This document shows, in pieces, positions 17,920 to 55,428 of a stretch of 56,367 bases of DNA. This stretch comes from Nemertoderma westbladi (Eukaryota; Animalia; Xenacoelomorpha): contig JAUCBJ010001331.1 in assembly GCA_032718475.1 (NCBI GenBank), positions 1 through 56,367 on the forward strand, in the 5' to 3' direction. How positions within the stretch are numbered: the stretch's first letter is position 1; each line of letters begins with the position of its first letter. The notes below the pieces were generated by a model. That model was not told the DNA's origin. It saw only the letters and a program-made list of their open reading frames with translations, and did not search any database. The translations under genes were made by a program, and so were the position numbers.

Positions 17920-17933
17920 CGTATAACTGTTAT
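17920..17933 (-). promoter_or_regulatory. E1 primer-binding site position, non-tRNA type (ATAACAGTTATACG)
   Basis: Abuts the 5' LTR end, lacks TGG, and is the exact inverted repeat of LTR 18651-18664. Confidence 0.8.
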
Positions 17934-21694: not shown

Positions 21695-22876
21695 TGTTCG
21701 CGCTTTCAGACCTTTGGCAGTTTAACCCGCCAAATTAGGATGTCTGTTAGATAATAAATCACTTTAGCCTATGACAAATATTTGATTCACTACACTAGTC
21801 GAAACCAATCTGTGCGCGATCATTCACCCGCTGGATATACCCGGGAGATTGGGTTCGACGGCTTAATCTTATTGCTATGTAAGCTTAATGTATTATTCGA
21901 CTGACAGTATTATATAATCTCTGACAATATTATTCACCTTCGGGGAATATTAACAGTTCCTTTAGGACGTGGCGCTCTATCTATATAAACAGAGTTATGA
22001 CTTAAACTACTCACAACGATATGGCTTAGTTATAATTCACATATATGGCGCATTCTTTAGGAAATGCTTCGTTATCAGTCTCACTCATACACAATGCTGC
22101 ACAATACTGCACACTGATCTGCCGATCTTCACTGATTTTAGTTACATATAAAAGGAACACGGACTGACTCATGTAGGGTCTATCAAATAACATTAGATTC
22201 ACTTCAAACCACTTTAACATAAGTCACAATCGTTATATATAACCTTCCTCTCTTACCTTCGGTATATCAAGAATATTGGGTTTTCGGGGTTATTTATCGT
22301 TATTCCAAATATAATAATTCATCAACCAAATTATGAAGTACCGACAGTAAATAGCAGTATAACAATATAAGGTATGCACAATGTTACACAATATGCAGTG
22401 TCAGTGTGTTGAGACAATCAGGTTTGTTGTGATAACGGATATATGTCCTTATAATTAAGCCTACTAGTGTACGGCTAAAACAGAAAAGCACAAAATACTT
22501 CCAAGCCGTTCTTTCCTTGGCTCAGGACTGAATGTAAACACTGCACATAGGCATTGCGTCATTTCTCGGAAATTTTCTGTACAAGGAGCCACAAAAATGC
22601 TCTGATTGGCTGACTGAACTGAGAGACGCCGTAGAACAAAGGAAATCAACACGTATGAATGTCAGCTGTTAACCGTAGTCATAGTAACTACTGTTCAAGA
22701 GTAGCTATCACCCTTTTGCGTCACGAATTGCCATAGAATCATCAAATATGCCTTTCACAGTACACATACGGAGGAAATAGGTCTTAGATCCTCTAAAAAC
22801 ACCGATACAGCAATAATACGGTCTCTTACACCTATTAAATCAACTACAGAGTATTTTAATGTAAAAGATAATAAAA
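21695..22876 (-). repeat. E2 3' LTR, missing its first 31 bp (sense orientation)
   Basis: Matches 35923-37104; the segment equivalent to 37105-37135 is absent and the LTR is fused directly to accessory-ORF sequence. Confidence 0.95.
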
Positions 22877-23905
22877 GCTAGTCCAGCAAGGTAAGGTTGG
22901 CGAATATCTAACGAACCCACTACCGGAGTGCCGCCAATCAACTGTTCAGGTAACACCAGATCTTTGAACAGTGAGTATAGCTCGGGAGGATCCGTAATAC
23001 TATTAGGATCGAGAGTTTGAGGTAGCACTTGGGAATGAGGAGGTCTGACCGAGTATTCCGGAACTCTGATCATGGGTTTGTTCAATGATCGTTTAAGGCG
23101 CACGACCGTAGGTGACACGTCGAAAAGGTTACGCTCGAAACTCCCATAAGTATATCGCGTAAAACTGTGTTTAGCGCAACGTCTCCGCAGATGTTTATGC
23201 CTTTCGATCTTCTGGTTAGGTCTAGGGCATTCGTCACAGTAATACCAAAGACGTATGTCTTGAAGGGGAAACGCGGGTGATCGCTCTCCAGTTTTACAAT
23301 ATTCCTCCATCTGTTCGAAGCTATCTGGAACGACAGGTAGCGGTCGATCAGCGGTAAGATACATCATCGTAAAATAGAGCCGTTTGAGTTCCATCATAGG
23401 ATCTGGATGTATACCTTGAGGATATCGAGTTTCGAGGTTTTGTTGACTGGCAACATTGAGATAGGTCTCTCTTAAGAACTCTAGATAATCGTTGAAACCG
23501 TTACGTTTATCAGGTTCTTCAACGTCTTCTCTTTCTAGTTTGTTTCGAATAGAGTTCTCGTGTTCTATTCTCGATTTATCGTTTCGACTCCGCTGGGTAT
23601 GATATTTAAATAAAACCATTTCCCTTTTCGGTATCAACATCGTCAGTGTCGTGTAAATCAATAGGATGACCAGTGGTCAAGAAGTCCATATATGTACCAT
23701 TACGATGCGTATAGCGAGCAGTGAATTTTCTATAGTCCAATTCACGCGTAAGCTGTTCCTGGGACATTGGCAGTTCGATATAACGACCATCGTCTTCCGT
23801 AGTAGTTGGATCAACGTCGCCGCGTATCAAGCTATCGACAAACGCTTGTAAAGGTAGAGTATATCTCTCCCTGATACCAAGATCATCTTCTATTAATTCA
23901 GTCAT
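22877..23905 (-). pseudogene. E2 accessory ORF (unknown function), 1-bp frameshift and C-terminal truncation
   Basis: ORFs 23606-23905 and 22840-23661 join if one T is removed from the run at 23625-23628 (E1 has one fewer and reads DVDTEREMALF). Contains CDEC-x9-HKH-x4-CAKH. Confidence 0.8.
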
Positions 23906-25559
23906 ATCTGCTATACGAGTTCACCAATATTATAATGAGTTTATATATATATTAGGCGAGCGGGCGTCGCTGCCTACTTCTCCCGTGCCCCCGGACAGTG
24001 TGATTCTCAGCGCCGATGTACCGCTGTCGCTGTACTTTCGCCAACGACGTAGCCGTACAACGACAACGATAACCGGCACAAGTCACTACACTGTCCGTCC
24101 CAAAGGCTTAGATGTACTTCAGGTTTCCTTGGAGAGTTAGGTTACTTTCACGATTGCGACTAGCTACTGTAAACACACTTTAGCAGTAACATTCATCTAT
24201 AAACTCACAAATACCACACAACTGGTCACAAATACGCACATTCGGGCCATTTGTCCGTTAGTCAATGCCTTCCAGAATGTCACTGTATTTATTATGTATC
24301 CTTGGATACTAGTAGTGCGCTATTTATTCCCTATGCTTTTCAATGGGACAAGCTTTCTATTGTTCTTTTAACTCAATTCTAATTCTAGCGTGGTTGTTGC
24401 TATGGTGACATTATGCAAAGCTAGCGGTAGAATTAGGGTAATTCCAATGCATACAGATCTGGGATGTTATTTAATAGTATTCTTTAATAGTCAATGTTCT
24501 GTTTTATATATGACTTTATGAATTTTATCGGCTATTGACTATGTTTGGGAGACTTTCGCACACTCATATGCATAATAAGATAAATCTCCGCTCCCTTGAT
24601 CTATTAATTAATGGAATTTTGGGAATGTTATAAATTGCGTAAAAATGGCAATTTATTAAATTCATTAAAAGGCATGAATTTAAATTTATTCCCTAAAATT
24701 TTATTATTTGATAATTAACTGGACATATTTTGATTCCAGAACATGTCTGGGGACACAAGATCCTTAATTCTATGAAAATTGTCCTTTTAAGAATATCGGT
24801 AAATGCTACGATATCTTAATTGACTAGAATTGTTGAAGGATCTGAATTTTACAGATTTGATTTATTAGATTTGCAAATATTAAATAATTAATATTTGAGA
24901 TGGGCACCGATTTATTCCAGAACTTGTCTGGGGACGTTAACCACTGATTCTAAAATTTGTCTTTCAAGTATATCGGTGGGTGCCGCGATATCTTAATCGA
25001 CTAGAATTGCAGATGGTCAAAGGGTTTAACAGATTTATTTTGCGTTATACGCTACTGTTAAAGGGACATCATGCTACTATATGTATTATTTAATATACGG
25101 TATGAGAGCAATATCGCACGAAGCAATGTCAGTGTGAAGAGGCAAGTCGTTTCCAAGGTCTACCCAGAGCTTGGTTTAGCCGAGACACGAGGATCTGAAC
25201 TTTGCATTCCTAATACTCTGCCTACCAATAATACCTGAATATAGTAGTGGCTTTATTGTACTTTAATAAGTACGGACATTTCATCTTACTGTAGTTACGT
25301 ATTGATAATGTAATACGGACAGTAAGGAAAGAGAAAAAGAATTATTTCTCGCCGTCGCACTAAATATATAATATACGTAATTAAACAATAAACGCGAATA
25401 TATTGCACTAATCTACTAAATAATCTCTAAAATAACATGTTACTAAATAAAATTAAATAAAACGATTAAAATAAAATTACATAATAATACATACATAAAT
25501 ATAAAAATAAAACAAATACAAATATAAAATAATATGGTCACACACCCACTCCAGCCATT

Positions 25560-28500
25560 TTAAGTTGGGGAGTCCCTAGATGTTTGTTGGATTAGGGAGG
25601 TGGTCGTGGGAAGAGTATCTTGTCTCCCATAGTTTCCGGAGAGTTCTCTGTCTCTTTCCAGTAAACATAAACGTCCCACCGGGCGATTGAGCTGTTGGGT
25701 CTCAAAGACTATCCCTGGTTTCTTAAAGTTACGCCGCATGACGACGAGTTCTACTGATCGCACCAAACCATCGCTCGAGATATGAGTCTCGATGATACGT
25801 CCTGTTTGCCATCGCTTACGTGGGAGATCGGGGTCCACAATAAGCACCATGTCTCCAGCGCTGACGTTTTCTTGCTGCGCAAACCACTTAGTTCGAAGTT
25901 GTAAAGTGGGCAGGTAATGTTTCTCGAAATGGTCAGCGAAACGACGGGATAGCAACTGCATAAGTTGCCAGGTTCGACGGCAGTACTCGTCTCCGTCTGT
26001 GATCTCCGATCGTGGGAGCATGGCTACGGGTTTTTTCAGTAGAAAGTGCGCGGGTGTTAGCGCTTCCAGGGAATCAGGACTTGAAGAGACTGGCATAAGC
26101 GGTCTTTCATTGAGATAGGCGGCGATTTCCTCCATTAACGTCCGCAATAGTTCGTCGGTGAGATAAGCGCGACAAGGCACAATAAAGTGGAACGCAGTCT
26201 TCACGCTCCTAATCAATCTCTCCCAACTTCCTCCCCACCAAGGGGCGTCGGCGGCGTTGAAGGTCCAGCTAGACGCTGTTATCTTTAGCTGATCGTCCAC
26301 CTGTCTTTTGTTCCAGTCTTTTACGTAAGCTTGAATTTCGTTGTTGGCGCCAATGAAGTTCGTTCCCTTATCCGATCTCATCGTGTTACTGGTTCCGAAA
26401 CGAGCAATCTGTCGTCGTAAACTCAACACGAAGCTGTTGGTGGATAGATCGTTTACCATATCGAGATGGATAGCTCTACAAGTCATACAAACGAAGATGA
26501 CACACCATCTCTTGACTATAGTCCGGGCACGATATACTTCAATAGGGCCAAATAAATCCACACCGGTATTAGTAAAGGGTGGTTCATAAAAGCTTACTCT
26601 TTCCCTAGGTAATTCTGCCTCTCGCTGTGTCAAAGGCCTACTGAATGCTTTCCTACAGGGTATGCAGTTCCTAAGAACTTGGTTCAGAGCCCTACGGGGT
26701 TTATAAAAATAGTAGCGAGTTCGAATTTCGCTCAGAACTCGTTCTCTTCCAGCATGATACAGTTTGCTATGAACATCTACAATCATCTTGATTTGTATAT
26801 CAAGATTTCTAATGAGTATGGGAAACTTAGTGTCAAAGGATAATGGGGCGTTGGTAAGCCTGCCTCCAACACGTATTAACCCATCTATCATTGTACTAGA
26901 GAAGCGATCCCTTAAGCGCATCTGCGGATTTCTTAACAACAGGAAATACTTATCGGAATCCTCACAGCATTGTAGGAGTCTCAGCATCTGTTTGTTGGTT
27001 TCATCATGCTCCTGGTAACTGATCTTCTCCTTTAGAAACCTGTCGGATATCTTGTATTTAGGAAGATCTTTAACAACATGGACTCGTGCAGATGTTGATG
27101 GAGCATCATCACTATTGGTCTTTGTCCCGGAGTAACGATGATGAAAACATCGTTTTAAATAGGTGACGGCTTTACAGAGCCGATTCCAGGAGCTGTAGTG
27201 ACGTATCGCTCTCTGCAAGAGAGGTGAGAGTCCTTGCGCGATATCTGGTATTCCAGATTTCCAATCCTTGTCACGGATTTCCAAGACTTCTTTAGTCGTG
27301 GCGGTGGGTTTCTGATCCAAAGCATCCTCTCCGGAAGTAAATAATACAGATAGATCAACCGCAGGTTTAAACAACTTCGATTTACTCGCTCGAGTTTTGG
27401 GTTTAACTTTCTCCGCTCCCTTGGCCTGTCTGATTTCTGCTGTTGTGAGATGGGGAGGCCATTCTTCTTCTTCTCGGTAGAGAAAGTCGGGTCCACCTAA
27501 CCATTCGGGAGTATTTACCAATTCCTTTGGAGTCGCTCCTCGGGAAGCGATGTCTGCTGGATTAATCGTTCCGGGGCAATGTCTCCATTGGTCCATCGTC
27601 GTGCGACTAAGTATGATGGCTACTCTGTTGGTAACGAAGACGCTGAACTGACAGACTTCATTGGTTATATACTCTAACACGAGTAAAGCGTCGGTCCAAT
27701 AGACAGTTTTCTCTAATGGGTAGTCAATCTGTTCTGTTACATTCCGGCCGATGGCTGTAGCGTATAGAGCCGCTTTTAACTCCGCTCGAGGAACTTTCAA
27801 CTTGTTGTTGATTAATGCCTTAGAAGTAACCAAGGCGACTTTGATTCCATCCAGAGTTTCCACTCTGAGATAGGCTACTATACCTATTCCCATATCGCTG
27901 GCGTCTCCAAACACATGGAGTTGATAGGAATACGTAGGGAGAACATGACCAAAATAGGAACGGGAAATTATAAAATCCTCGATAGCCGGCAGAGAATCTT
28001 CCCATTTCATCCACTTCTTTAATAATTCTCCCTTAAGTGGATCGTCCCATGAGTGGTTTTCAAGCCACATTTGTTGTACCAAACTACGAGCAATCAATAT
28101 AACTGGGCTAATAAATCCCAATGGATCGAAATAAGTGCTCAGTATACTTAAGCAAATCCGTTTGGTTCGAACTGGATTATCTCGCTGTTTTAGCTGGAAA
28201 AACAGAATATCTCGCTCTGTGTCCCATTTCAAGCCGAGTGTCTTGGTTTCTGGCAGATCATCTTTGATCAAATCTAGATCTTTCGCCCCTCGATCTTCCG
28301 CAGGGATCGACTCCAGAAACTCACGGGAGTTGCTGGTGAATTTCGTTAATCGAAACCCACCTCTTTTTAAGCACTCTACCGTTCCTTTAGCGACCTCAAT
28401 GGCTTCCTCAACTGATGGGAGGGACTTCAGATTGTCGTCCATGTATATGTCTCTCTTGATGTTATCGATCACTTCCTTAGAGAAGGCCTCTCGGTTGTCC

Positions 28501-31500
28501 TCTGCAGTGGTACGCACTACCGAACAGGCGTTGGAAGGGCTTGAGATTATCCCAAAGGCCTGGATGGTCATCCAGTACTCCACCGGTTTCTGGTTGAGGT
28601 CTCCTTCGGGCCACCACAGAAATCGTAGACTATCTCGATCCCTATCCAACACTTTGACTTGTAAGAACATGCCTTCTATATCGGAGGCGAAAGCAATCGA
28701 ATATTGTCTCAATCTTAAAAGAATTCCCAACAAAGATTGAAGCAAGTTGGGTCCAGGTAACAATTCAGAGTTAAGGGATTGACCCATGTAAAGAGCGGAG
28801 CCATCAAACACTACTCTCACTTCATGTGGTTTACCGGGTTTAGGAACGTAATGGTGAGTTAAGTAATACGTTCTTTCAGTCGCAGGTGTTTCTTCCGGTA
28901 CTCTCTCCGCGTATCCTTTACTAATAAATTTCTCCAGCTGTGTTTGATACATTGCTTTAGCTGAAGAATTAGCCGTAAGGCGTCGATGGAGTTGCGCGAT
29001 TCTTTTTTCCGCCAAGGGTTTGTTATTGATGAACTTCGGTTCTCTCTTGCGGAAAGGTAGACCGACTTCATACCTACCTTGATCTTTGAGGAAACGCGTA
29101 GTGGTTTCTTGGATCTGCTTGGCCCTTTTCTCTTCCACCGACAAGGCTTTATCGTAGGAATTGGGCTCTACCGCCTCTTGCGTAAAGAATCGTACGGCAT
29201 GTTCATCTCGAGTCTTGGCATTGCAACGCTCAATAACGTCATTTAACTCGTCGTTATAAGCTTCTCGTTCAGATGGATAGAGAAGTTGACATAAGTTCAC
29301 TTGGGTTTGCCAAGCCTCGTTTTCCTTAAGGAGATCGATGGTATTCTCCTCATCAAAAAGCTGGTGAACGTCGTCGTTATCTGAGGAGTATGGAGTTCCC
29401 TCAGTTAAGTTGTCTCCCTCACTGGTATCATCTTCCCATTCACTCACCTGGCAGACGTGCTCTTGCGGTAGTCTTTCTCTGAGTGTTCTACGGGAAGGGC
29501 CAGTAAAGTACCAACCTACTCTAGTTCTTACCGCATAGGTCTGTAGTGGCTGCGGTTGAGCAGGCCGTTTCTCTAATGTCTCCAGCGCCTCGTGCGCGTT
29601 TTGGCCGATGAGTATTTGCACTCCAGGATAATCAGTCTGGAATCGAGGTATGTTAAGATGTTGGATGCTCTCATCCTCGTCCCAATTATAAAGGTCTGCT
29701 TGAGTAGTAGCGAAGTTCTTTATAGCCACCATTTTCACTGACCTTATGCTATTTTCTCCTAGTTCGTCCTGGGGGGTGGACAACGCTCCTACATAATAAT
29801 CTGCTGTTATTGTAGATTTCCAAACTTGCATAATGCCGGACATGTTGAGCTTAGTTTGGAACTTGGGTTGTCCAGCGAAGATGTCTTCGGCTAGTTCTTT
29901 ATCAATGAATGTTCCTGTGCTGCCGGAGTCCAGGAGGGCGTTGACTATATAGCTCCTTTGAGGTCCATGGACCCGTAACTGGACTACAGGAAATTCTCGG
30001 ATTCCTACATTGGAAGTTGGTGCTTTCCACGATAGTTGTCGGTCAGAAGTAGTTAGAATGAAGTCGCTGTCTGTATCTTTTTCATATGTGAGTGCTCGAT
30101 ACACTGCGGCATTTATCATGTAACAGGATTCGTTTTCGTCGGAGAACTCGTCCGTATAGAATCCTTCCATCTCAGATTGATCAGTGTCGTTCACATCACT
30201 GAATTGGACATGTAGTTCGGAATCACTTACCTGATTAGGACTATTTCGATCGAATTCAGCGTGCAACAAGATATGATGTTTCGCACCACACTTTGCACAC
30301 CTTATGTCTGAGTAACAGGTTCGCCGTTGATGTCCTTGTCTGAGGCAGTTATAACACAACCGCTTGTCCCACATGACTTCACGCCTCTCAGTTAATGATT
30401 TCTTTAGAAATTCATCACACCTATTCAAATGGTGGGTCCCGTCACACAGCGCACATTTCGGTTTGATGTTACTTACCTTATTTTGAGTCACATTGTGTAC
30501 ACTTGCCTTTTCTTCGGGCTTTCTCACCGGAATTCTCTTGGGAGACGTGGGAGGAGTTTTTCTTACCTGTTCTCTCCTGTCATTTGCTCGAGACTTGAAT
30601 TTACTTACCTGATCTTTAGGCATTTTATTGACATAATAAGATCTATCGGTGTCTTTCCCGCTATCTTCTCCTTGAGAAGTCTGGCTTTCGCCGTCGTCTG
30701 TATAACACACTGGTGTTACCTTTCTCCTAGAGACGGGTTTTTCACTTACCTTGTTTTCCGGTGTCTTCTCTCTGGACAGTTTCAGGAGCTGTAATTTCAC
30801 TTCTCCATCTAGGAATGACATGAGATCAGCCATGGTAGGATCTCGTCGTTGTTGTTCCATCATATATAACACTTTCTTATCCCAGCGTGTACCTACCCCA
30901 CCTTTCGGTAAAGTAGAAGCCACAGCTCCAATGACCATAGAACTTTGGTATTCATGAGACTTACCTAACCAATCTAATTGTCTACAGATCTCTTGAATCT
31001 CATCGGAAAACTCTATTATCCCGCTGCTGATGAACTTTCTGGGCGCTACTAATTTTGCATATAAATACTTAGCGATATTATTCCTATTACCATACCTGAT
31101 GTTTAGTGTGTCCCAAACTTGTCTTAATCCGTCTGGATGTCCAATAAACTTTAACGCCATTAACTTGGGAGATCCTTCCAAGCACTCGATGAGGTATCTA
31201 AGTTTTTCTCCATTAGATAGTACAGAGTTCTGTATGTTATCTTTGTAATATTCATTAAAAGGTAACCATTTCATCTCATCTCCATTGAACTTGACGATCT
31301 CTCCCACCTTTACCGCTTGCCGGGCTTTGGTTCTAGCCATTTGACGCGTAAAACTTTCTTGGGCCATCGTGTTATTTAATATCGAGTTATCGGTATATAA
31401 ATTTCTCGGATTATGATCAGTTCTATATGGAATATCATTATCAACAGGTCTATAATTACCCTTAATAGGGTTCACTATAGGAGTTTCTACTTCGCTAGCA

Positions 31501-33656
31501 GTATAGATGCGTGTAGGCTCCACACCTTGCGCATGAGATACTTCAGACCTAACAGGTTGACACATTGTTACAGGGGGTGGTGGTATACCCTTTTGTAAAT
31601 TTACTAATTTATCGCGTTCTAGCGCGATATTTTGCTGCACTTCTTGCAACTCTAGCCTACTTTCCCTTACTGAGCCCTTTAACTGTTGAACAGTCCCTTC
31701 TAACTCTCGGACCTGTTGAGAGGAGCGTGCTTGATTCTCCTCCATCTTTCCGAGGAGAATGTCCATCCCCTGCCGTCTCTCGTCCACCCAATCAACCGCC
31801 GAAACGGGATCCGCCAACGTCGTAGCGGACGGACGAGGGACAACGGGCGACAAATCAGGAATATTTCGCTCGGGGTCCAGGACCTGAACTGTCTCCTGGG
31901 CAGTTCTACTGGGCACAGGTAGCTTAGTGCTATGCAGAGGGAATTTAGAGGTAGCTTCAGGGAGCACAGGTGTGTCTATCACCGAAGGGGTGATTTCAAA
32001 AACAGGCCTAATTATTTCAGGCTCATCTACTATAGTAGGGAGTCTTTCTATTTTAATTATTTGGTCTGTGGGCTCTGTACTACCTAAGTTGGTGTTATTT
32101 AGTTGCCTTCTAACAGCTGGAGGCAAATCAGGCAATTTCTGACGGTGGAATGTTCTTTTACGTCTACTTAGACGAGATCTATTTCCTTTGCCTTCAGTAT
32201 CGGTGGTATCGCCTTCCTCAGATGATGTATATCCCTGTCTTTTGGGAGTAGATCGATTCATCATCTGCATATTACTAGCTGTTAACTGTTTATTTAGGCA
32301 GTCTTGATTCTCCTGAATGCTTTCCAATTCTAATTGGGTGGTTTCTTCAATCGCTCTCCGTTCGGCTTCTGCCACTGCCTCTGCGGCCTTTCTTTCTGCC
32401 GCTGCTTCTGCCGCTGCCTCTGCCGCTGCCGCCTTTCTTTCCGCTTCGGCCGATGCCACTGCTGCTGCTACTGCCGCTGCCTTTCTGTCTTCTATACGTT
32501 TTTTCTTTACTTGTTCTTCTTGGACTCGTGTCAGGCGGAGTTGTTCATCAAATTTGGCCTGATTTGCAGCCCTCATTTCCACATCGATGGCATCCAACAC
32601 AAGCTTGGTTCCTTCACTATTAGGGCTAAGTCCCTCTAACCTTCTCCTCAACTCGTCATCACCTAAAAAACGTTGATAGTCTGACAGATAGATGTCAATG
32701 GCATCCCTCTTATGCGGTTTCTCTGCCGTCGCTTCACTTTCCACTTGGGAAAAAGTAGCGTCTGTTGATTCTCCATGGGTTGAGCGCTCCTCCAGCTGAG
32801 CTTTCCACTGAGCTGTTCCTTGAACCTGGAGACTCACCCTTTGAAACCAGGTCTTTACGGCAACTTGCAACGACGTGTCTTGCCTTCGTTTAGAAGCCTC
32901 TTCAAAGGCCGATAATATTAGCCTGATTCGTAGAATTCTTTCTCTCACTTGATAAAGCAGTTGTCCCTGCTCTTGAGGTCCTTGTGGTTGTTGAAACAGT
33001 TGTCCTTTTACTCGCTCCATAGAGCTGAAGAATCCTTGTGCGTATCCGGCTGCGGACCTCTTCCATACAGCTGGATCGATGGTTTCCCTGGCTACTCCCA
33101 TCCGGTGTATGTCTTCCCAGGCAGCTTCTGATAAATCAAACGGGAGTCCGGGTCCGGGGAAGTTCCATTGCGACTCAACCATGGACTTCAGTTCTTCCCT
33201 TGTATACCCAGCATAACTATCTCTCGTTGAGCGCTGACTTCTCGCCCAATCGATCTGGTGTTCTTCCACCGCGATCAATAACCTAGTGAGTACGGCTGCA
33301 GGAAGGATGAGAAGGGGATCTGAATAAGCCTCATCCGTCATCCTTGCTCCGCGTTCGGGTGTCAGTTCTACCGTATCTTCACTACTGGAGCTGTCGGGCC
33401 GCTGAGAAATAAGTTCTTGGCTCGCGGGTTGTTGCTGTTCCGCTGCTTCTTGGTTCCGCTTGACCTGAGCTCGAGTGCCTATGATAGACCTACGATGTTG
33501 GACCAGCCTAGGTTCTGTTATTACTACAGGAGGGATGACTTTCCTCACAGTGGGGGGTGAACTGAACTTACGACTAGACGGTTCTACGCCTCTATCTGAG
33601 TCGCAGATAGTTACATCTAATAAACTGTCTGACAGGTTCTGCTTAGTATCAGACAT
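25560..33656 (-). CDS. BEL/Pao Gag-Pol polyprotein (2698 aa): long N-terminal extension, capsid-like region, three Cys/His knuckles, aspartic protease, RT, RNase H, integrase
   Basis: KFNGDEMKW..F capsid-region motif; CALCDGTHHLNRC / CYNCLRQGHQRRTC / CAKCGAKHHILLH triple knuckle typical of BEL/Pao; ALLDSGS; SDIEGMFLQV and YMDD; HVFGDAS, VPRAEL, YWTD, NPADIASRG; H-x4-H...CIPC, GVDLFGP, SDKGTNF, WERLIRSVK. Confidence 0.98.
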   Translation of the reverse strand: MSDTKQNLSDSLLDVTICDSDRGVEPSSRKFSSPPTVRKVIPPVVITEPRLVQHRRSIIGTRAQVKRNQEAAEQQQPASQELISQRPDSSSSEDTVELTPERGARMTDEAYSDPLLILPAAVLTRLLIAVEEHQIDWARSQRSTRDSYAGYTREELKSMVESQWNFPGPGLPFDLSEAAWEDIHRMGVARETIDPAVWKRSAAGYAQGFFSSMERVKGQLFQQPQGPQEQGQLLYQVRERILRIRLILSAFEEASKRRQDTSLQVAVKTWFQRVSLQVQGTAQWKAQLEERSTHGESTDATFSQVESEATAEKPHKRDAIDIYLSDYQRFLGDDELRRRLEGLSPNSEGTKLVLDAIDVEMRAANQAKFDEQLRLTRVQEEQVKKKRIEDRKAAAVAAAVASAEAERKAAAAEAAAEAAAERKAAEAVAEAERRAIEETTQLELESIQENQDCLNKQLTASNMQMMNRSTPKRQGYTSSEEGDTTDTEGKGNRSRLSRRKRTFHRQKLPDLPPAVRRQLNNTNLGSTEPTDQIIKIERLPTIVDEPEIIRPVFEITPSVIDTPVLPEATSKFPLHSTKLPVPSRTAQETVQVLDPERNIPDLSPVVPRPSATTLADPVSAVDWVDERRQGMDILLGKMEENQARSSQQVRELEGTVQQLKGSVRESRLELQEVQQNIALERDKLVNLQKGIPPPPVTMCQPVRSEVSHAQGVEPTRIYTASEVETPIVNPIKGNYRPVDNDIPYRTDHNPRNLYTDNSILNNTMAQESFTRQMARTKARQAVKVGEIVKFNGDEMKWLPFNEYYKDNIQNSVLSNGEKLRYLIECLEGSPKLMALKFIGHPDGLRQVWDTLNIRYGNRNNIAKYLYAKLVAPRKFISSGIIEFSDEIQEICRQLDWLGKSHEYQSSMVIGAVASTLPKGGVGTRWDKKVLYMMEQQRRDPTMADLMSFLDGEVKLQLLKLSREKTPENKVSEKPVSRRKVTPVCYTDDGESQTSQGEDSGKDTDRSYYVNKMPKDQVSKFKSRANDRREQVRKTPPTSPKRIPVRKPEEKASVHNVTQNKVSNIKPKCALCDGTHHLNRCDEFLKKSLTERREVMWDKRLCYNCLRQGHQRRTCYSDIRCAKCGAKHHILLHAEFDRNSPNQVSDSELHVQFSDVNDTDQSEMEGFYTDEFSDENESCYMINAAVYRALTYEKDTDSDFILTTSDRQLSWKAPTSNVGIREFPVVQLRVHGPQRSYIVNALLDSGSTGTFIDKELAEDIFAGQPKFQTKLNMSGIMQVWKSTITADYYVGALSTPQDELGENSIRSVKMVAIKNFATTQADLYNWDEDESIQHLNIPRFQTDYPGVQILIGQNAHEALETLEKRPAQPQPLQTYAVRTRVGWYFTGPSRRTLRERLPQEHVCQVSEWEDDTSEGDNLTEGTPYSSDNDDVHQLFDEENTIDLLKENEAWQTQVNLCQLLYPSEREAYNDELNDVIERCNAKTRDEHAVRFFTQEAVEPNSYDKALSVEEKRAKQIQETTTRFLKDQGRYEVGLPFRKREPKFINNKPLAEKRIAQLHRRLTANSSAKAMYQTQLEKFISKGYAERVPEETPATERTYYLTHHYVPKPGKPHEVRVVFDGSALYMGQSLNSELLPGPNLLQSLLGILLRLRQYSIAFASDIEGMFLQVKVLDRDRDSLRFLWWPEGDLNQKPVEYWMTIQAFGIISSPSNACSVVRTTAEDNREAFSKEVIDNIKRDIYMDDNLKSLPSVEEAIEVAKGTVECLKRGGFRLTKFTSNSREFLESIPAEDRGAKDLDLIKDDLPETKTLGLKWDTERDILFFQLKQRDNPVRTKRICLSILSTYFDPLGFISPVILIARSLVQQMWLENHSWDDPLKGELLKKWMKWEDSLPAIEDFIISRSYFGHVLPTYSYQLHVFGDASDMGIGIVAYLRVETLDGIKVALVTSKALINNKLKVPRAELKAALYATAIGRNVTEQIDYPLEKTVYWTDALLVLEYITNEVCQFSVFVTNRVAIILSRTTMDQWRHCPGTINPADIASRGATPKELVNTPEWLGGPDFLYREEEEWPPHLTTAEIRQAKGAEKVKPKTRASKSKLFKPAVDLSVLFTSGEDALDQKPTATTKEVLEIRDKDWKSGIPDIAQGLSPLLQRAIRHYSSWNRLCKAVTYLKRCFHHRYSGTKTNSDDAPSTSARVHVVKDLPKYKISDRFLKEKISYQEHDETNKQMLRLLQCCEDSDKYFLLLRNPQMRLRDRFSSTMIDGLIRVGGRLTNAPLSFDTKFPILIRNLDIQIKMIVDVHSKLYHAGRERVLSEIRTRYYFYKPRRALNQVLRNCIPCRKAFSRPLTQREAELPRERVSFYEPPFTNTGVDLFGPIEVYRARTIVKRWCVIFVCMTCRAIHLDMVNDLSTNSFVLSLRRQIARFGTSNTMRSDKGTNFIGANNEIQAYVKDWNKRQVDDQLKITASSWTFNAADAPWWGGSWERLIRSVKTAFHFIVPCRAYLTDELLRTLMEEIAAYLNERPLMPVSSSPDSLEALTPAHFLLKKPVAMLPRSEITDGDEYCRRTWQLMQLLSRRFADHFEKHYLPTLQLRTKWFAQQENVSAGDMVLIVDPDLPRKRWQTGRIIETHISSDGLVRSVELVVMRRNFKKPGIVFETQQLNRPVGRLCLLERDRELSGNYGRQDTLPTTTSLIQQTSRDSPT

Positions 33657-34980
33657 GTTTATGTATACAGTTGAATGTCTACTGCTGTATTACAGTATGA
33701 GCAAGTCTAGTAACTCAGTATTAACTGCTAGCCTAGTAATTAATTACCGATACTGCTACTCAGTGTAGTAGGATATATATATATTATATTAGAATACCGG
33801 TATGCTTATAGTATATATAATTATATAAGTATTATTACAGACTAGGTTTATCACAGAATACCGGTATAATTTTAGCACAAATATATATAAATATATAATA
33901 GGCCTATCGGGAATACCGGTATACAGCTTACAGTTTATAGTATATATAATTCTGGACTAGAATTACTTACAGGTACCGGTATAATTTCAGCCGAAACTTA
34001 TAGAAATAAAGATAATAGGCCTATCGTAAATACCGATATATCAATTATTTTAAAAATAACTGAATTTCTGAATTTCAAGGGTTACTTGGTTACTTTACTT
34101 ACTTTATTACCGTTATTGGAGCAGTAATCCAACTGATATTGAGACCTAATGGTTGTATGGTAGGCCTACTATTTATAAATCGTTAGATTTGATTTATAAT
34201 ATATATATACCCGTTTTAATGGGTTTTGTCGATGTTTGAAATAAATGTTATTATTTCTGGGGAGTAATCACTACACAAAGCGGTGCGCTTTCAGTGAAGT
34301 GTTACTTATAGGACACTAAAACAAATAATACTAATTTACCTAAGTTACTTAATACTACAAATTACGTACAATTCGGGTTGAGATTACAATCTCTAAATAA
34401 ACACAAAATTTTACAAAAACACAAAATACGAATTTTTAGGGTAATTTTACAAGAAGTCTACAAACCAGCCTAACAAAGGGTTAGAATCTAGTTATTACAA
34501 CGGACAGGGTACTGCGGTATTTGAAAATAATACGCGGTAGTAAATACACTGCGTTGTCCAGATAGGAAAATACCACCGCCTGACGACCTATAGCTGTATC
34601 GCTATAGGTTCTACGTTATGTATCACGGAGTGTTCCTACCTAGAAGTTAATAGAGCTAATCGAATGTGCCTATCAACCACTTTACAACACAAATATAATG
34701 CCTACCCCAATTACTTTCGGAAAGCACTGTACACTAAACCCTAAATTAGGTACGAGTACTTGTATAACAGATAATCAGTAGTTAAAAATACTTGAACAGC
34801 TAAAAGAACCACGGCATCTGCTGGAGTGACCGATGCACAAAATCACCAGTCTTTACCTACGCCAAGCAGCCCGTGTAGTACCGGGGTTAATTTAACTATA
34901 GCGGTATGTATAACAAACACAATTATTGCAGGAACAAACTTGGGGAATGAATGTTGCGAATAATCGCATAAACTCTGAAT

Positions 34981-35910: not shown

Positions 35911-35922
35911 TATATCCGTTAT
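35911..35922 (-). promoter_or_regulatory. E2 primer-binding site position, non-tRNA type (ATAACGGATATA)
   Basis: Abuts the 5' LTR; exact inverted repeat of LTR 36660-36671. Confidence 0.8.
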
Positions 35923-37135
35923 TGTTCGCGCTTTCAGACCTTTGGCAGTTTAACCCGCCAAATTAGGATGTCTGTTAGATAATAAATCACTTTAGCCTAT
36001 GACAAATATTTGATTCACTACACTAGTCGAAACCAATCTGTGCGCGATCATTCACCCGCTGGATATACCCGGGAGATTGGGTTCGACGGCTTAATCTTAT
36101 TGCTATGTAAGCTTAATGTATTATTCGACTGACAGTATTATATAATCTCTGACAATATTATTCACCTTCGGGGAATATTAACAGTTCCTTTAGGACGTGG
36201 CGCTCTATCTATATAAACAGAGTTATGACTTAAACTACTCACAACGATATGGCTTAGTTATAATTCACATATATGGCGCATTCTTTAGGAAATGCTTCGT
36301 TATCAGTCTCACTCATACACAATGCTGCACAATACTGCACACTGATCTGCCGATCTTCACTGATTTTAGTTACATATAAAAGGAACACGGACTGACTCAT
36401 GTAGGGTCTATCAAATAACATTAGATTCACTTCAAACCACTTTAACATAAGTCACAATCGTTATATATAACCTTCCTCTCTTACCTTCGGTATATCAAGA
36501 ATATTGGGTTTTCGGGGTTATTTATCGTTATTCCAAATATAATAATTCATCAACCAAATTATGAAGTACCGACAGTAAATAGCAGTATAACAATATAAGG
36601 TATGCACAATGTTACACAATATGCAGTGTCAGTGTGTTGAGACAATCAGGTTTGTTGTGATAACGGATATATGTCCTTATAATTAAGCCTACTAGTGTAC
36701 GGCTAAAACAGAAAAGCACAAAATACTTCCAAGCCGTTCTTTCCTTGGCTCAGGACTGAATGTAAACACTGCACATAGGCATTGCGTCATTTCTCGGAAA
36801 TTTTCTGTACAAGGAGCCACAAAAATGCTCTGATTGGCTGACTGAACTGAGAGACGCCGTAGAACAAAGGAAATCAACACCTATGAATGTCAGCTGTTAA
36901 CCGTAGTCATAGTAACTACTGTTCAAGAGTAGCTATCACCCTTTTGCGTCACGAATTGCCATAGAATCATCAAATATGCCTTTCACAGTACACATACGGA
37001 GGAAATAGGTCTTAGATCCTCTAAAAACACCGATACAGCAATAATACGGTCTCTTACACCTATTAAATCAACTACAGAGTATTTTAATGTAAAAGATAAT
37101 AAAAATAACGGGGCAATTCAGCAAAGGCTTTTACA
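35923..37135 (-). repeat. E2 5' LTR (1213 bp)
   Basis: TG...CA termini, repeat of 21695-22876, followed by TSD ATCTT. Confidence 0.97.
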
Positions 37136-37963: not shown

Positions 37964-38138
37964 TATAAGATATGTGTGAGATAGATGGATGGATTATTAT
38001 AGGCTGCTGACTGCTGAGTGTAACTGTGGTGGTGGTTGGTATTCTGGTCATTGCAGTATTGTGCGGTTTGTAGTCTGACAGTGCTAGATGATTATAGGAT
38101 TAATACATTTTGAATAACTGACACATTTATATCTTATA
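37964..38138 (+). repeat. Gypsy-like 5' LTR (TA...TA termini)
   Basis: TATAAGATAT...ATATCTTATA 10-bp terminal inverted repeat; identical to 42179-42353. Confidence 0.95.
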
Positions 38139-38150: not shown

Positions 38151-38161
38151 TTGCAGCAGTG

Positions 38162-46955: not shown

Positions 46956-48154
46956 TGTAAAAGCTTTTGTGGGATAACTGATTCGTTTGCCTGGCTGGCC
47001 AGTTCCCCCCCGGTCGCTAGAATACTCTAAAAGGGATCTATAGCTAAAATGGTGCAAGCTACCAGCTTATTGGCTGATGTGCTGTACGAAGGTATCTGGG
47101 TTCTGTTCGATCGGCCAACCAGCTTAGGGAGGTCGCCTCAGCCCTGCTGTCCGTATCGGCCAATAGAATTTGAGTGGGCGTTGATTTTGACCTATCCCAG
47201 AGCTACTGAACTGAATTTCCTATCTGTATGCTCATCCTCTGTGTTGGACGGGAGCTTCGGGGAATAAGGGTAGTTGGTATCCTCGTATAGTCATGTAGTC
47301 ATATGATTCTTCTTATGATTCTGTTGTTGTGTTCCCATTTTTCGCCATAACACCGGCTTTTGGGAAGAACTCTAGTGAAACTGCTTAAATTATAGAAGGT
47401 ATAACTGTTACCTAACTAACCAATCCCACCTAACTAATCTCACTTAATTTAACTGCACTAATCATATTGTTTGTACTGTTATTTACCGTCAGTTATTAAT
47501 TGTATAGATTTGTTGATGAAATATTGTCCTTTGGAGAATACGGATAAATCACCCAAATTTCCCAATTTTCTTGATACACTACAGGTTAGAGAGAAGGGTT
47601 ATACATAACAATTGCGATTTATATCAATGTGGTGTGTATTGAATCTAATGTTATTTAGCAGAGACTACATGAGTCAATTGCTGTTCTCTTTATGTGTGAT
47701 CAAATTTACTGACGGTCGGCAGAATAGTGTGCATGATTGTGATTGGTAACAAAGCATTTCCTAAAGAATGCGCCTTATACTTTAATTATAAGCATTATCG
47801 TTGCGTTTAGTATAAGTCCTAGCTCTGTTTAAATAGATAGAGCGCCACGTCCTAAAGGAACTGTTAATATTTCCCGAAAGCTAATAATATCTGTCAGAAA
47901 TTAATTATTAACGATCAATCGAATAATACAGTAGGTTTACACTGCAACCTTACACTGCAATAATAAAATTTAAGCATCCGAATTCAGCCTCCCGGGTGTA
48001 TCCATCGGGTGAATGATCGCGCATGGGCTGGCTTCGGCTAATGTTTTTGTTTATTAGCATAAAATATTGTCGTATGCTAAAGGTGTTTTAATTAACTAAA
48101 AGACATATAAATTTTGGCAGGTTAAACTGCCGAAGGTCTTCAAAAGCGCGAACA
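46956..48154 (+). repeat. E3 5' LTR (1199 bp)
   Basis: Termini and the 3' roughly 700 bp match the reverse complement of the E1/E2 LTRs; partner LTR not in window; predicted TSD ATCTC. Confidence 0.88.
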
Positions 48155-48165
48155 GTAACAGTTAT
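48155..48165 (+). promoter_or_regulatory. E3 primer-binding site position, non-tRNA type (GTAACAGTTAT)
   Basis: Abuts the LTR; exact inverted repeat of LTR 47401-47411 (ATAACTGTTAC). Confidence 0.8.
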
Positions 48166-49098: not shown

Positions 49099-50412
49099 GA
49101 TTGTGCGATTATTCGCAACATTCATGTCCCCAAGTTTATCCCTACAGTAATTGTGCTTGTTATACATACCGTTATAGTTAAATTAACCCCGGTACTACAC
49201 GGGCTGCTTGGCGTAGGACAAGACTGGTGACTTTGTGCTCTGGTCACTCCAGCAGATGCCGTGGTTCTTTTAACTGTTCAAGTATATTTAACTACTGATT
49301 ATTTGTTATACCGGTACTTGTACCTAATTTAGGGTTTAGTGTACAGTGCTTTCCGAAGTAATTAGTGTGTAGGCAGTATATTTGTGTTGTAAAGTGGTTG
49401 ATAGGCACATTCGTTAGCTCTATTAACTTCTGGGTAGGAACACTCCGTGATACATAACATAGTACCTATAGCGATACGGTTATAGGTCGTCAGGCGGTGG
49501 CATTTTCCTATCTGGACAGTGCAATATATTTACTACTACTTATTATTTCAAATACCGTAGTACCCTGTCCTTTGTAATAACCGGAAATCTAACCCTTTGT
49601 TAGGCTGGTTTGTAGACTTCCTGTAAAATTACCCTAAAAATTTCGTACGTAATATTTTGTTGTGTTTAATTAGAGAATTAATCTCATCCGTATCGTAAGT
49701 AATTTGTAGTATTAAGTAACTTAGGTAAATTAGAATTATCAGTTTTAGTGTCTCAATAAGTAACACTTCACTGAGAGCGCACAGCTTCTGTGTAGTGATT
49801 CCCCCAGAAATAATAACATTTATTTCAAATATTGACAAAAACCCATTTAAACGGGTGTATATCTATTATAAATCAACTCAAACGATTTATAAATAGTAGG
49901 CCTGCCATACAACAACTAGGTCTCAATATCAGTTGGACTACTGCTTAAATAACGGTAATAAAGTAAGTTAAAGTAACCAAGTAACCCTAAAATATTCAGA
50001 AATTCAATTATTCTAAAAATAATTGACATACCGGTACTTACCATAGGCTTATTATATTTATTTCTATAAATTTGAGCTGAAATCATACCGGTATTCTGTA
50101 ATTAATTCTAGTTCATAATTATACTTATATATACTATAAGTGTAAGCTGTATACCGGTATTCACGATAGGCCTATTATATATTTATATATTTGTGCTAAA
50201 ATTATATACCGGTACTCTGTGACAAATCTAGTCTGTAATAATACTTATATATATATTATAAGCATACCGGTATTCTAATATATTGTATATATATATCACG
50301 TTACACTGAGTAACGGTATCGGTAATAAATCACTAGGCTTGCGGTTATACTGAATTACCAGACTTGCTTTAACTGAAACTATAGTAGTAGACATTCAACT
50401 GTATAGCTAAAC

Positions 50413-53400
50413 ATGTCTGACACTCAGAAAAACCTGTCAGACAGTCTGATCGATACAACCATCTGTGACACAGATAGGAGTGTGGAACGATTAAGAAAGG
50501 AGTTCAGCTCACCCCCTACTGCAAGAAAGGTCATCCCTCCAGTAGTATCAGACCCTAGGCTAATCCACCATAGGTCCATCATAGGCACTCGGGCACAGGT
50601 CAAACGGAACCAAGAGGCAGCTGTCCTATCACAGCAACATCTTGGTCAAGAACCTGCTTCCCAGCGACCCGATAGCTCCAGTAGTTCGGATACTGTAGAG
50701 CTGACCCCCGAACGCGGAGTGCAGATGGCTGCTACAGTCTACTCGGACCCCCTTCTTACCCTTCCTGCTGCAGTGCTGACTACTATATTCATTGCAGTGG
50801 AGGAACATCAAGCCGACTGGGCGAGAAATAAGCGAGCGACTCAAGATAATTATGCGGGATACGCCAGGGAAGAATTGATGTCTATTGTCGAGTCACAATG
50901 GAACTTTCCCGGACTCGGACTCCCGTTGGATCTGTCCGAGGCTACTTGGGAAGATATACACAGGATGGGAGTGGCTAAAGATACAATGGATCCAGCTGTT
51001 TGGAAGAGGTCGGCAGCAGGATATGTGCAGGGATTCTTCGGCTCCTTGGAGCGATTGGAAGAACAACTGTTTAGACAACCTCAAGGACCTCAAGAGCAGG
51101 AAGAGCTGCTATACCAAGTACGCGAAAGAACCCTACGCATTCGACTAATCCTCTCAGCCTTTGAGGAAACTTCCAAAAGAAGACAGGACACGTCGCTGCA
51201 GGTTGCTGTCAAAACTTGGTTACATCGGGTAGGTCTCAAAGTACAGGAAACGGCCCAGTGGAAATCCCAGCTGGCTGAGAGATCAACCTATGAGGAACAA
51301 ACTGATGTCACCCTTTCTCAAGCGGAAAGCGAAGAGACCGCCGAGAAACCGCGAACTAGAGACGCTATCGACATTTATTTGTCCGACTATCAGCGATTCC
51401 TAGGAGATGAAGAGTTGAGGAGACGGCTGTCTGGACTTTCCCCTAATAGTGAAGGAACCAAGCTTGTGTTGGACTCAATCGATGCCGAAATGTTAGCTGC
51501 AAACCAAGCTGAATTTGATGAGAAACTCCGCCTCACAAGAGTCCGAGAAGAACAAGTAAAGAAAGAACGGATAGAGAAAAGAAAGGTGGCAGCAGCAGCG
51601 GCGGCAGAAGCAGAAGCCGAAAGAAAGGCGGCAGAAGCAGAAGCCGAAAGAAAGTCGGCAGAAGCAGAAGCTGAAAGAAAGGCGGCAGAAGCAGAAGCCG
51701 AAAGAAAGGCGGCAGAAGCAGAAGCCGAAAGAAAGGCGGCAGAAGCAGAAGCAGAAAGAAAAGCAGCAGTGGCAGAAGCAGAACGGAGAGCTTCTGAGGA
51801 GACTATCCAACTGGAGTTGGAAAATCTGCAAGAGACGCAAGACAGTATAAATAAACAGTTTACTGCTAATCAAATGCAGATGATGAGAAAATCTACTCCC
51901 AAGCGCCAGGGATACACATCCTCGGAGGAAGGCGAGACCACCGATCCTGAAGGCGGAGGAAATAGATCTCATCTAAGTAGGCGTAGAAAAACATCTTACA
52001 GTCGCAAATTGCCTGATTTGCCCCCAGCTGTTAGAAGACAGCTAGCTAGCACAGACTTGAGTAGTATAGAACCTACAGCCCAAAGTATTAAGGTCAAAAG
52101 ACTCCCTACAATAGTTGATGAGCCGGAAATAATTAGGCCTGTCGTTCCCAAAGTCACTTCTGTGTTAGAGACCCCTGTACTTCCAGAGCTTAACTCTAAA
52201 TTCCCTTTACATAGTACTACACTGCCTGTACCCGGTAGAACAGTCCAAGAGAATATCCCTGTCCAGATAGCAGAGAGAGAAATCAAAAATTTGTCTCCCG
52301 TCGTCCCGCGTCAGCCCGCTACTATGTTGGCGACTCCCGCTTCGGCGGTTGAGTGGGTAGAAGAGGGACGGCAGGGGATGAATCTCCTGCTAGGACAGAT
52401 GCAGGAGACTGTCCACCAACTTAAGGGAACAGTGAGGGAAGGTAGAGCAGAGTTGCAAGAAGTGCAGCAAAGTATCGCACTAGAACGCGACAAATTAGTC
52501 AATATCCAAAAGGGCATACCAATACCCCCTGTAACATTGTGTCAACCTGTTAGGTCTGAAGTATTACATGCGCAAGGTGTGGAGCCTACACGCATCTATA
52601 CTGCTAGTGAAGTAGAAACTCCTATAGCAAACCCTATTAAGGGTGATTATAGACCTGTTATTAATGATATTCCCTATAGACCTGATAATGATCCGAGAAA
52701 TTTATATACCGATAATTCGATATTAAATAACACGATGGCCCAAGAAAGCTTTACGCGTCAGATGGCTAGAACAGAAGCCCGCCAAGCGGTCAAAGTGGGA
52801 GAGATCGTCAAATTCAATGGAGATGAGATGAAATGGTTACCTTTCAACGAATATTACAAAGATAGCATGCAGAACTCTGTACTATCTAACGGAGAGAAAC
52901 TTAGATTCCTCATCAAGTGCTTGGAAGGACCTCACAAGTTAATGGCGTTAACATCCAGATGGATTAAGACAAGTTTGGGATACATTAAACATCAGGTATG
53001 GTAACAAGGATAACATAGCTAAGTATTTGTATGCAAAATTAGTAGCCCCCCGACACTTCCTTAGTAGCGGGATTATAGAGTTTTCCGATGAAATTCAAGA
53101 GATCTGTAGACAACTGGACTGGTTAGGTAAGTCGCATGAATATCAGAGTTCCATGGTTATTGGAGCCGTAGTCTCTACTTTACCAAAGGGTGGAGTATGT
53201 ACACGCTGGGACAAGAAAGTGTTGTACATGAATGAACAACAACGACGAAGTCCTACCATGGCTGATCTCATGTCCTTCTTAGATGGTGAGGTTAAACTAC
53301 AACTCATCAAGCAGTCCAGAGAGAAAACATCGGAAAATAAGGTAAGTGAGAAACCCGCTTCTAGGAGGAGAGTAACACCGGTGTGTTACACTGACGACGG

Positions 53401-55428
53401 CGAAAGCCAAGCTTCTCAAGAAGAGGACAGCGGGAAAGACACCGATCGATCTTACTACGTTGAAAAAACCTCAAAAGACGTAAGTAAATACAAGGCTCGA
53501 AACAACGATAGGAGAGAACAGGTTGCCAAGACCCCTCCTCAGTCTCCTAACAGAATGCACCGAAGAAAACCCGAAGACAAAACGAGAGTGCATCAAGTTA
53601 CCCAAGGTAAAGTGAGTAACATAAAACCTAACTGTGCGCTGTGCGACGGGACCCACCGTTTGAGTGCGTGTGCTGAATTTCTGAAGAAATCCCTAGTAGA
53701 CAGACGTACAGTCGTGTGGGATAAGCGGTTATGCTATAATTGCCTCAGACCAGGACATCAACGGCGAACCTGTTACTCCGACATAAAGTGTGCAAAGTGT
53801 GGCGCGAAACATCACATCTTGTTACACAGTGAGTTCGAACGAGACAGACAGAGTCAGGTAAGTGAGCCCGAACTACATGTCCAATTTAGTGACGTAAACG
53901 ACACTGATCAAGAGTCTGAGATGGAAGGATTCTATACTGACGAATTCTCTGACGCCAATGAATCCTGTTATCTAATAAATACCGCAGTGTATCGAGCACT
54001 TACTTACGAAAAGGACATCAACGATGAGTTTTCCCCAACTACTTTCGCCAAACAACCCTCTTGGAAAGCTCCAGCTTCCAACGTAGGAATCAGAGAATTT
54101 CCTGTAGTTCAAGTAAGAGTTCACGGTCTTAACAAAAGCTACATAGTGAACGCCCTCCTTGACTCCGGCAGCACAGGAACATTCATCGATCAAGAACTAG
54201 CCGAAGATATCTTTGCTGGACAACCCAAGTTCCGGACTAAATTGAATATGTCAGGAATTATGCAGGTTTGGAAATCTACCCTAACGGCAGATTACTATGT
54301 AGGTGTGTTGTCCACCCCCCAGGATAAGTTAGGAACACAAGGTATAAGGTCAGTAAAAATGGTGGCTATAAAGAACTTTGCTACTACTCAAGCAGACCTT
54401 TATAATTGGGACGAGGATGAGAGCATCCAACATCTTAAGATACCTCGATTCCAGACAGATTATCCTGGAGTGCAAATACTCATCGGCCAAAACGCGCACG
54501 AGGCGCTCGAAACATTAGAGAAACGGCCTGCTCAACCACAACCACTGCAAACCTATGCGGTAAGAACTAGAGTAGGTTGGTACTTTACTGGCCCTTCCCG
54601 TAGAACTCTCGAAGAGAGAATGCCACACGAACAAATATATCAAGTAAACGATTGGGAAGTGGAAAGCAGTGAGGTGGACGAACTAACTGAGGGAACACCA
54701 TACTCCTCAGATAATGACGACATCTACCAACTCTTCGAAGAAGAGAACACAATTGACCTACTTACAGAGAATCAAACTTGGAAAAACCAAGCGAACCTAT
54801 GTCAACTGATTCGCCCAACGGAATCCATTATTTATAATGACGAACTTAATGACGAGGTAGAGCGCTACAACGCTAGAACTCGGGACGAACTCGCCGTACG
54901 ATTCTTTACCCAAGAATTAGTAGAACCCAATTCATACGACAAAGCCCTGTCGATAGAAGAAGAAAGAGCCAAGCAAATCCAGGAAACAACCACACGTTTT
55001 TTAAAAGATCAAGGTAGATATGAAATCGGACTACCCTTCCGAAAGCGGGAAACCAGATTTATAAATAACAGACCCTTGGCTGAGAAAAGAATCAATCAAT
55101 TACATCGACGTCTTACGGCAAACGCTTCAGCTAAGGAAATGTACCAAACTCAGTTGAAGAAATTTATCACAAAAGGATATGCGGAGCGAGTACCGGAAGG
55201 AACTCCAATAACTGAAAGAACTTATTATCTAACACATCATTACGTTCCCAAACCCGGTAAACCCCATGAAGTACGGATCGTATTTGATGGCTCCGCCCTA
55301 TATATGGGCCAATCCCTCAACTCCGAGTTGTTACCAGGACCCAACTTGCTCCAATCTTTGTTGGGAATACTTTTAAGATTAAGACAATATTCCATCGCGT
55401 TCGCCTCTGATATAGAAGGAATGTTCTT
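50413..55428 (+). pseudogene. E3 gag-pol (Gag, protease, start of RT), frameshifted near 52950 and truncated by LINE insertion
   Basis: ORFs 50413-53004 and 53027-55432 are collinear with the E2 polyprotein; small deletion in the LKFIGHP codons. Confidence 0.93.

Follow-up and report, generated by a model that had tools for sequence, protein, structure and literature searches.

Candidate self-priming in a BEL/Pao retrotransposon family of Nemertoderma westbladi

The primer-binding site (PBS) of each of three LTR-retrotransposon copies in the window (the whole 56,367-nucleotide stretch of Nemertoderma westbladi DNA analyzed here) adjoins the 5' LTR with a spacer of zero and is the exact complement of a motif within that same LTR. 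The match extends over 14 nt in E1 (LTR position 433), 12 nt in E2 (position 465), and 11 nt in E3 (position 446), and no TGG-type tRNA site follows the 5' LTR in any of the three copies. PBS positions 1, 6, and 8 vary among copies, and in all three the cognate motif carries the compensating change. The unusual point is this compensation of every change rather than conservation of the motif, which at 0.73–0.91 is no higher than that of the remaining LTR. A first-pass annotation had described the sites and their pairing, the lack of a TGG-initiated tRNA site, and the mirrored changes; recomputation returned the same coordinates and the same pairings at zero spacer, no TGG site in three of three copies, and compensation at three of three variable pairs. 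As set out below, the primer of this family very likely derives from the element itself, in cis or in trans, and minus-strand synthesis would probably start from the element's own RNA in cis, through a Tf1-like cleavage and with no host tRNA.

Identity and layout of the three copies

The copies belong to one family, with 80–86% mutual identity over long stretches (Table 1). LTRs of the family have TG..CA termini, and E1 and E2 are flanked by 5-bp target-site duplications (TSDs; CAGAA and AAGAT, respectively); the LTR ends were set from these features. The two E2 LTRs show a single difference. The E1 pair shows 13, seven of which are T in the 5' copy and C in the 3' copy; despite this T-for-C bias in the E1 5' LTR, CpG loss in the window is small (observed/expected 0.89).

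The intact E2 frame encodes, in the order Gag-PR-RT-RH-IN, a DUF1759 domain, zinc knuckles, protease, RT (YMDD), RNase H/A17, integrase, and DUF5641. Pfam matches were obtained for Peptidase_A17, DUF1759, Integrase_H2C2, and DUF5641, and the catalytic motifs of the protease, RT, RNase H, and integrase were all found in the frame. These domains and motifs identify the element as BEL/Pao, and the A17, DUF1759, and DUF5641 domains together with the domain order bear out the earlier assignment of the copies to this superfamily. PF05380 is present in 120 of the 120 homologues listed. Among the matches listed, the nearest proteins are 29–41% identical, the best relatives reach 35–37% over the Pol region, and amphioxus, a danio, sea urchin, and soft coral supply named homologues that rank near the top. 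The second reading frame, located after pol, is 82–88% identical in DNA between E1 and E2; it had no Pfam match and, in an Atlas search, no match at or above 0.9. The family is highly abundant in its host, as 11,901 contig pieces matched 1 kb of the element in one public run.

Several further features of the window were recorded. The long N-terminal part of Gag contains a variable-length repeat rich in Ala, Glu, Arg, and Lys (32344–32474 in E2, 13956–14281 in E1, and 51573–51815 in E3). The E1 leader carries a 539-bp duplication (16195–17270), and the separate E1 duplicate of the LTR end, PBS, and leader hairpin perhaps reflects a slip during strand transfer. A compact Gypsy-like element between E2 and E3 has identical 175-bp LTRs with TA..TA rather than TG..CA ends and a CCGCG duplication; its PBS lacks a TGG, does not match the element itself (5 nt), and may resemble the complement of a lysine tRNA's 5' end. 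A 1.3-kb repeat occurs in two copies that are 96% alike (19643–20955 and 44186–45506), with an inner array of ~163-bp units, and a similar end lies near 250–300.

Table 1. Features of the BEL/Pao copies and of the Gypsy-like element, in window coordinates.
Feature	Position	Strand	Detail
E1, whole element	2750-19096	minus	~16.3 kb
E2, whole element	21695-37135	minus	
E3	46956 to window end	plus	3' end outside window
E1 5' LTR	17934..19096	minus	1163 bp; TSD CAGAA
E1 3' LTR	2750..3912	minus	short purine tract before it; motif copy 3467-3480
E2 5' LTR	35923..37135	minus	1213 bp; TSD AAGAT on both sides
E2 3' LTR	21695..22876	minus	first 31 bp and polypurine region deleted; motif copy 22432-22443
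E3 5' LTR	46956..48154	plus	1199 bp
E1 PBS	17920..17933	minus	adjoins LTR
E1 LTR motif complementary to PBS	18651..18664	minus	
E2 PBS	35911..35922	minus	adjoins LTR, no TGG
E2 LTR motif complementary to PBS	36660..36671	minus	candidate self-primer 3' end at 36660
E3 PBS	48155..48165	plus	adjoins LTR
E3 LTR motif complementary to PBS	47401..47411	plus	
E1 Gag-Pol	7247..15600	minus	broken by frameshifts near 12200 and 8310 and by a stop in frame near 10566
E2 Gag-Pol	25560..33689	minus	intact, 2709 aa stop to stop
E3 Gag-Pol	50380..56367	plus	broken near 52950 and 55430; truncated by window end
Second reading frame after pol	E2 22879..23920; E1 4631-5363	minus	two frames in E2; broken in both
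E1 duplicate of LTR end, PBS, and leader hairpin	17820..17869 (region to 17938)	minus	69 bp downstream
CCAAT box, E2	36833..36837	minus	167 nt upstream of motif; same offset in E1; -241 in E3
Candidate poly(A) signal, E2	36096..36101	minus	AATAAG in E2; AATAAA in most public copies
E2 inner arm	36042..36050	minus	predicted partner of last 9 LTR bases (35923-35931)
E2 outer arm	36097..36112	minus	predicted partner of leader 35891-35905
Compact Gypsy-like element	37964-42353	plus	4.4 kb; zinc knuckle, protease, RT, DUF7047, RNase H, integrase

Covariation between primer-binding site and LTR motif

The motifs of E1, E2, and E3 occupy identical alignment columns, and the six PBS/motif cross-pairs between copies at zero offset reach only 5–8 nt. 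Only position 1 differs between the PBSs of E1 and E3, and the E1 motif can pair with the E3 PBS through G-U (–10.4 kcal/mol versus –10.1 kcal/mol for the cognate pair), which leaves, in essence, two variants in the window that differ strongly. Around the motif, LTR identity among copies is 0.32–0.58 upstream, falls to 0.16–0.37 in the 70 columns that follow, and rises to 0.72–0.78 beyond; a hypervariable stretch 3' of the motif is what we would expect at a point of strand transfer.

We compared E2 with public contigs from four of seven runs (X1, X3, X4, and X5), none of which is recorded as RNA. Among the difference rows listed (40 of 131), changes at PBS positions 1 and 5 account for 66% and 69% of depth in X1 and for 53% and 64% in X3, and the X5 contigs have neither; one X4 contig carries both together (depth 16.6 of 22.3). 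The motif stretch was then chosen to test the PBS-derived prediction, which had not been recorded in advance. Exactly the two motif changes predicted from PBS positions 1 and 5 occur in an X4 contig (depth 15 of 23.5), and an X5 contig has the motif change that matches PBS position 1. The covariation that the first-pass annotation had proposed to look for is thus supported by further copies, with variant PBS and variant motif unphased, on separate contigs. For X1 and X3, in which the variant PBS is the majority, the difference table has no row at the motif positions; X1 depth drops from ~587,000 to 190,000 across the motif, and several public contigs diverge precisely at its 3' edge.

In total, five compensated changes were seen and, among those seen, none was uncompensated. 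This count argues against coincidence, or an ancestral inverted duplication that was frozen and has no function, as does the rarity of the match in dinucleotide-shuffled LTRs (0, 1, and 3 of 5000 for E1, E2, and E3, respectively) and its recurrence with unrelated letters in nine relatives. Although the window offers just three copies, and the PBSs of two are almost the same, we regard such an origin as extremely improbable.

The same variation bears on the nature of the primer. With four PBS variants, no single base pairs with all of them at positions 1, 5, and 8, even when G-U is allowed, which argues against one external primer. Half-tRNA primers are known in copia lineages (excerpts of PMC6317226), and a fragment of a host tRNA, or another small RNA, might prime here, the LTR match being secondary; two relatives (L009 and L015) do share 16 identical bases after the LTR. 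At 3 of 11 positions, however, one primer cannot pair with all four variants, each PBS follows its own LTR, and L009 and L015 are sisters (SH-aLRT 97) that both have a matching junction of the kind described below. No tRNA genes were found in the window. We consider priming by a host small RNA very improbable.

Junction-spanning matches in distant relatives

A profile search gave 16 related loci, 11 of which have a readable 5' LTR end (L006, L010, L017, and L018 do not, and these and L021 were left out). LTR ends of L008, L009, L012, L013, L014, and L016 were placed by hand, and that of L019 is uncertain. Fifteen of the BEL/Pao-bearing contigs (L007–L021) are filed as bacterial genomes; because they carry BEL/Pao elements, animal DNA sorted into metagenome bins is their probable source.

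First, nine of the 11 relatives have a self-match of 10–12 nt. A strict script found a self-match of at least 11 nt in five of ten relatives and a relaxed acceptor rule found one in seven of ten, L013 being added separately to the relaxed-rule set; L007 pairs at 10 of 11 positions by eye, with a perfect run of 8. Under the relaxed rule, 0–5 of 500 shuffled leaders reached the observed score (40 of 500 for L007), and 11 nt was attained by 1 of 148 unrelated cross-pairs, or by 2 of 148 with any GT..AG. Second, eight of the nine match only when a GT-AG junction within the LTR is bridged, L011 being contiguous, and the same textbook donor and acceptor were chosen when all 143–982 GT..AG pairs were allowed. 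A match that requires splicing points to pairing at the RNA level. Third, the two relatives with a TGG site, L016 and L020, have self-matches of just 5–6 nt. PBS spacers in the relatives are 0–5 nt (8 in L019, with its uncertain LTR end), and the L020 TGG site lies 3 nt from the LTR. Five matches to the LTR-end/PBS pattern in metagenomes were rejected as chance (no protein match, DNA match of at most 25 nt), and the pattern had no match in viral contigs.

In a quick IQ-TREE tree, a single clade (SH-aLRT 99) contains all nine self-matching relatives together with proteins from danio, urchin, amphioxus, crinoid, and coral, L020 joins arthropod elements (SH-aLRT 100), and the window element forms a long unresolved branch beside L016, outside the insect group. 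A second tree was similar; both were built without named clade references (Sinbad, Suzu, Dan, Pao, and BEL).

For the window family, a splice-aware self-match found no intron across the motif. A candidate splice donor does lie 175–327 nt upstream of the window motif, with an AG directly before it. L016 (3024–3482) combines a TGG-type site with donor- and acceptor-like sites in its LTR, and because of this the LTR intron may be older than self-priming.

The relatives also bear on where transcription starts. In L007, L008, and L014, TATA-like boxes precede the donor by 50–103 nt; in L013 they lie far upstream, and four of the eight intron-bearing relatives have none. Because the match in these relatives spans a predicted exon junction well downstream of the TATA-like boxes, a longer 5' fragment whose 3' end serves as the primer is more likely; it is doubtful that the primer consists of the first 11 nt of the transcript, and also doubtful that window-family transcription starts at the motif. 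The earlier proposal of a tRNA-independent, self-primed BEL/Pao lineage accordingly stands as regards the identity of the element, the lack of a tRNA-type site, the covariation, and the self-match of relatives, but its placement of the start at the motif is called into question by these boxes.

Within the window LTRs, no TATA box is present 30 nt upstream of the motif. E2 has a TATA-like word 455 nt downstream of the motif and ~110 nt before the candidate poly(A) signal, where E1 and E3 differ. A start at that word would put the motif in U3, and the 3' LTR carries the motif as well; both points would suit a helix with a structural role (in packaging, in polyadenylation control, or in RNA circularization through the 3' LTR copy) in an element that uses another primer. 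Such a role would leave the element with no primer site, as neither TGG nor constant sequence follows the LTR. The helix, moreover, ends at the LTR terminus, is 11–12 nt long (the Tf1 length) in 12 elements plus Sinbad, and is missing from both TGG-site elements. A purely structural helix thus seems improbable to us.

A candidate priming cycle and known systems

In the cycle that we favor, transcription would begin within the 5' LTR, either at the motif or upstream of it, and the motif would fold back ~730–750 nt onto the PBS to form an 11-bp helix ending at the LTR terminus and perhaps stabilized by a pair of flanking arms, as in the Tf1 "pretzel". Cleavage by the RT/RNase H of the element would follow immediately 3' of the motif, and RT would extend the cut end through U5 and R. 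Plus-strand synthesis would later copy the primer into a new PBS. Repeated compensated changes would follow, because a mutation of the motif would be carried into the PBS through primer copying; by analogy with Tf1 cDNA carrying a PBS copy, this would be a one-step route. In most of the distant relatives, where the 11-nt match appears only after removal of the LTR intron, the primer would be made by host splicing, and the window family would represent the intron-free form.

A self-derived primer could instead act in trans: a short LTR transcript, which in relatives would be spliced and would use the poly(A) signal of the LTR itself, or the RNA of a dimer partner would be trimmed or cut so that it ends at the motif and would anneal to the PBS of an uncut genomic RNA. 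All of the covariation evidence fits this arrangement equally well. It would also account for inheritance of the intron, the genomic 5' copy staying unspliced, whereas priming in cis in the spliced relatives needs a 3' intron copy that is left unspliced; and AATAAA lies 15–38 nt past the acceptor in five of the eight intron-bearing relatives, which would yield a short spliced RNA. In the window family, however, the poly(A) candidate is ~570 nt past the motif with no intron across it, leaving a long 3' tail to remove. The hypervariable stretch right after the motif suits a cut in cis better, and the sole studied precedent, Tf1, acts in cis (excerpts of PMC7175516). We judge a trans primer unlikely, though well short of negligible, and return to the cis cycle.

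The predicted arms and folding are weak evidence for a pretzel-like structure. The best inner-arm site is homologous in all three copies, with shuffled arms as good in 52, 37, and 23 of 300 cases, and so is the best outer-arm site (0, 26, and 89 of 300). Both arms are nested in all three LTRs, but they are clearly better than shuffles in only one of six arm tests. The leader arm has a competing local hairpin, and the inner arm of the E1 5' LTR shows a double change, A-U for G-C, at two CpG sites that is missing from the E1 3' LTR. Pairing upstream of the 11-mer was equaled by 13 (E1), 92 (E2), and 677 (E3) of 1000 shuffles. Nested folding cannot draw pseudoknots, and its result shifts with the length of leader folded. 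When 60 or 150 nt of leader were included, it placed the motif-PBS helix in the best structure of both E2 and E3 (pair probability 0.63–1.0); the helix was lost in both with 300 nt and was never recovered for E1. Because the leader after the PBS complements the region that holds the poly(A) candidate, leader 35891–35905 could mask that signal (36096–36101) in the 5' LTR only. The variant at 36096 within this candidate accounts for 72% of depth in X1 and 78% in X3.

Self-priming of this general kind has been described for the Tf1/sushi group, and Tcn1 as well as the TAR lineage of copia are predicted to use it (excerpts of PMC6317226, PMC4600332, PMC3601003, PMC5341516, and bioRxiv 2022.12.06.519325). 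In Tf1, the transcript's initial 11 bases pair with the PBS and RNase H cuts between bases 11 and 12 (PMC7175516, same excerpts); the PBS starts ATAAC and about half of Tf1 cDNA has a DNA copy of the PBS (excerpts of PMC11042837), and two flanking duplexes form the pretzel (excerpts of bioRxiv 2022.12.06.519325). Tf1/Tf2 of Schizosaccharomyces pombe, Tj1, and the Tf1/sushi group likewise have no tRNA site and an 11-nt LTR/PBS complement, flanking duplexes being a possible further similarity, and the first five PBS bases of Tf1 are identical to those of E1 and E2. By contrast, the Tf1/sushi elements are Ty3/Gypsy chromoviruses, whereas the window family has A17, DUF1759, and DUF5641 and no chromodomain match, with a 1.2-kb LTR and ~740 nt from motif to PBS. 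Tf1 takes the first 11 nt of its transcript as primer, whereas the match in the window relatives spans a predicted splice junction well downstream of TATA-like boxes. Priming is demonstrated for Tf1 and, for the window family, inferred from sequence. Predictions for the plant Ty1/copia TAR lineage (Houba, Osr-1) and the Tcn1 clade likewise come from PBS-LTR complementarity alone; these are other superfamilies in other hosts, and the excerpts of PMC6317226 do not mention a splice-made primer.

The ICTV profile of Belpaoviridae/Semotivirus describes a PBS of 18 nt that pairs with tRNA-Arg or tRNA-Gly, puts the genome at 4.2–10 kb, and calls replication poorly understood (PMC8742986). The window family shares with Belpaoviridae the single Gag-PR-RT-RH-IN frame, LTRs, short purine tract, and 5-bp TSD, and its LTRs (1163–1213 bp, TG..CA, TSD) lie at the top of the 0.2–1.2 kb range. 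It departs from the profile in lacking an 18-nt tRNA PBS in three of three copies, in the ~16.3-kb length of E1, and in its 2709-aa frame and second post-pol frame. As the PBS criterion of the ICTV is descriptive, the missing tRNA site marks a variant rather than another family.

Sinbad of Schistosoma mansoni, also BEL/Pao, likewise has no TGG after the LTR (excerpts of PMC554778). By eye, its bases 391–401 complement 191–198 plus 234–236 across a 35-nt GT..AG stretch, giving an 11-nt match; compared with the window family, its LTR is 386 bp, its spacer is 4 nt, and the match requires splicing (same excerpts). PBS, priming, and tRNA terms had no match in the main text of the BEL/Pao surveys PMC554778, PMC3118150, PMC6238403, and PMC8556966. 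Among the matches listed, a full-text literature search that covered little of subscription journals, Repbase Reports, and GyDB returned no report of BEL/Pao self-priming. On comparative evidence that is strong, the window feature is likely to be a form of a known self-priming mechanism within a superfamily listed as tRNA-primed, and an earlier mention is possible.

Quite plausibly, self-priming is normal in a large aquatic-animal branch of BEL/Pao that includes Sinbad, in which splicing of an LTR intron would build the primer and the PBS would be re-templated in each cycle. The window family would then be an intron-free offshoot or an independent origin, with primer and PBS co-evolving within one genome. 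Its abundance and its natural cognate and non-cognate primer/PBS pairs make covariation and priming directly testable in this family. Annotation tools that demand a tRNA site will have missed or mis-scored elements of this type. If the proposal is correct, self-priming reaches a third LTR superfamily, in animals, and replication of many of its members depends on host splicing, which would tie it to RNA processing.
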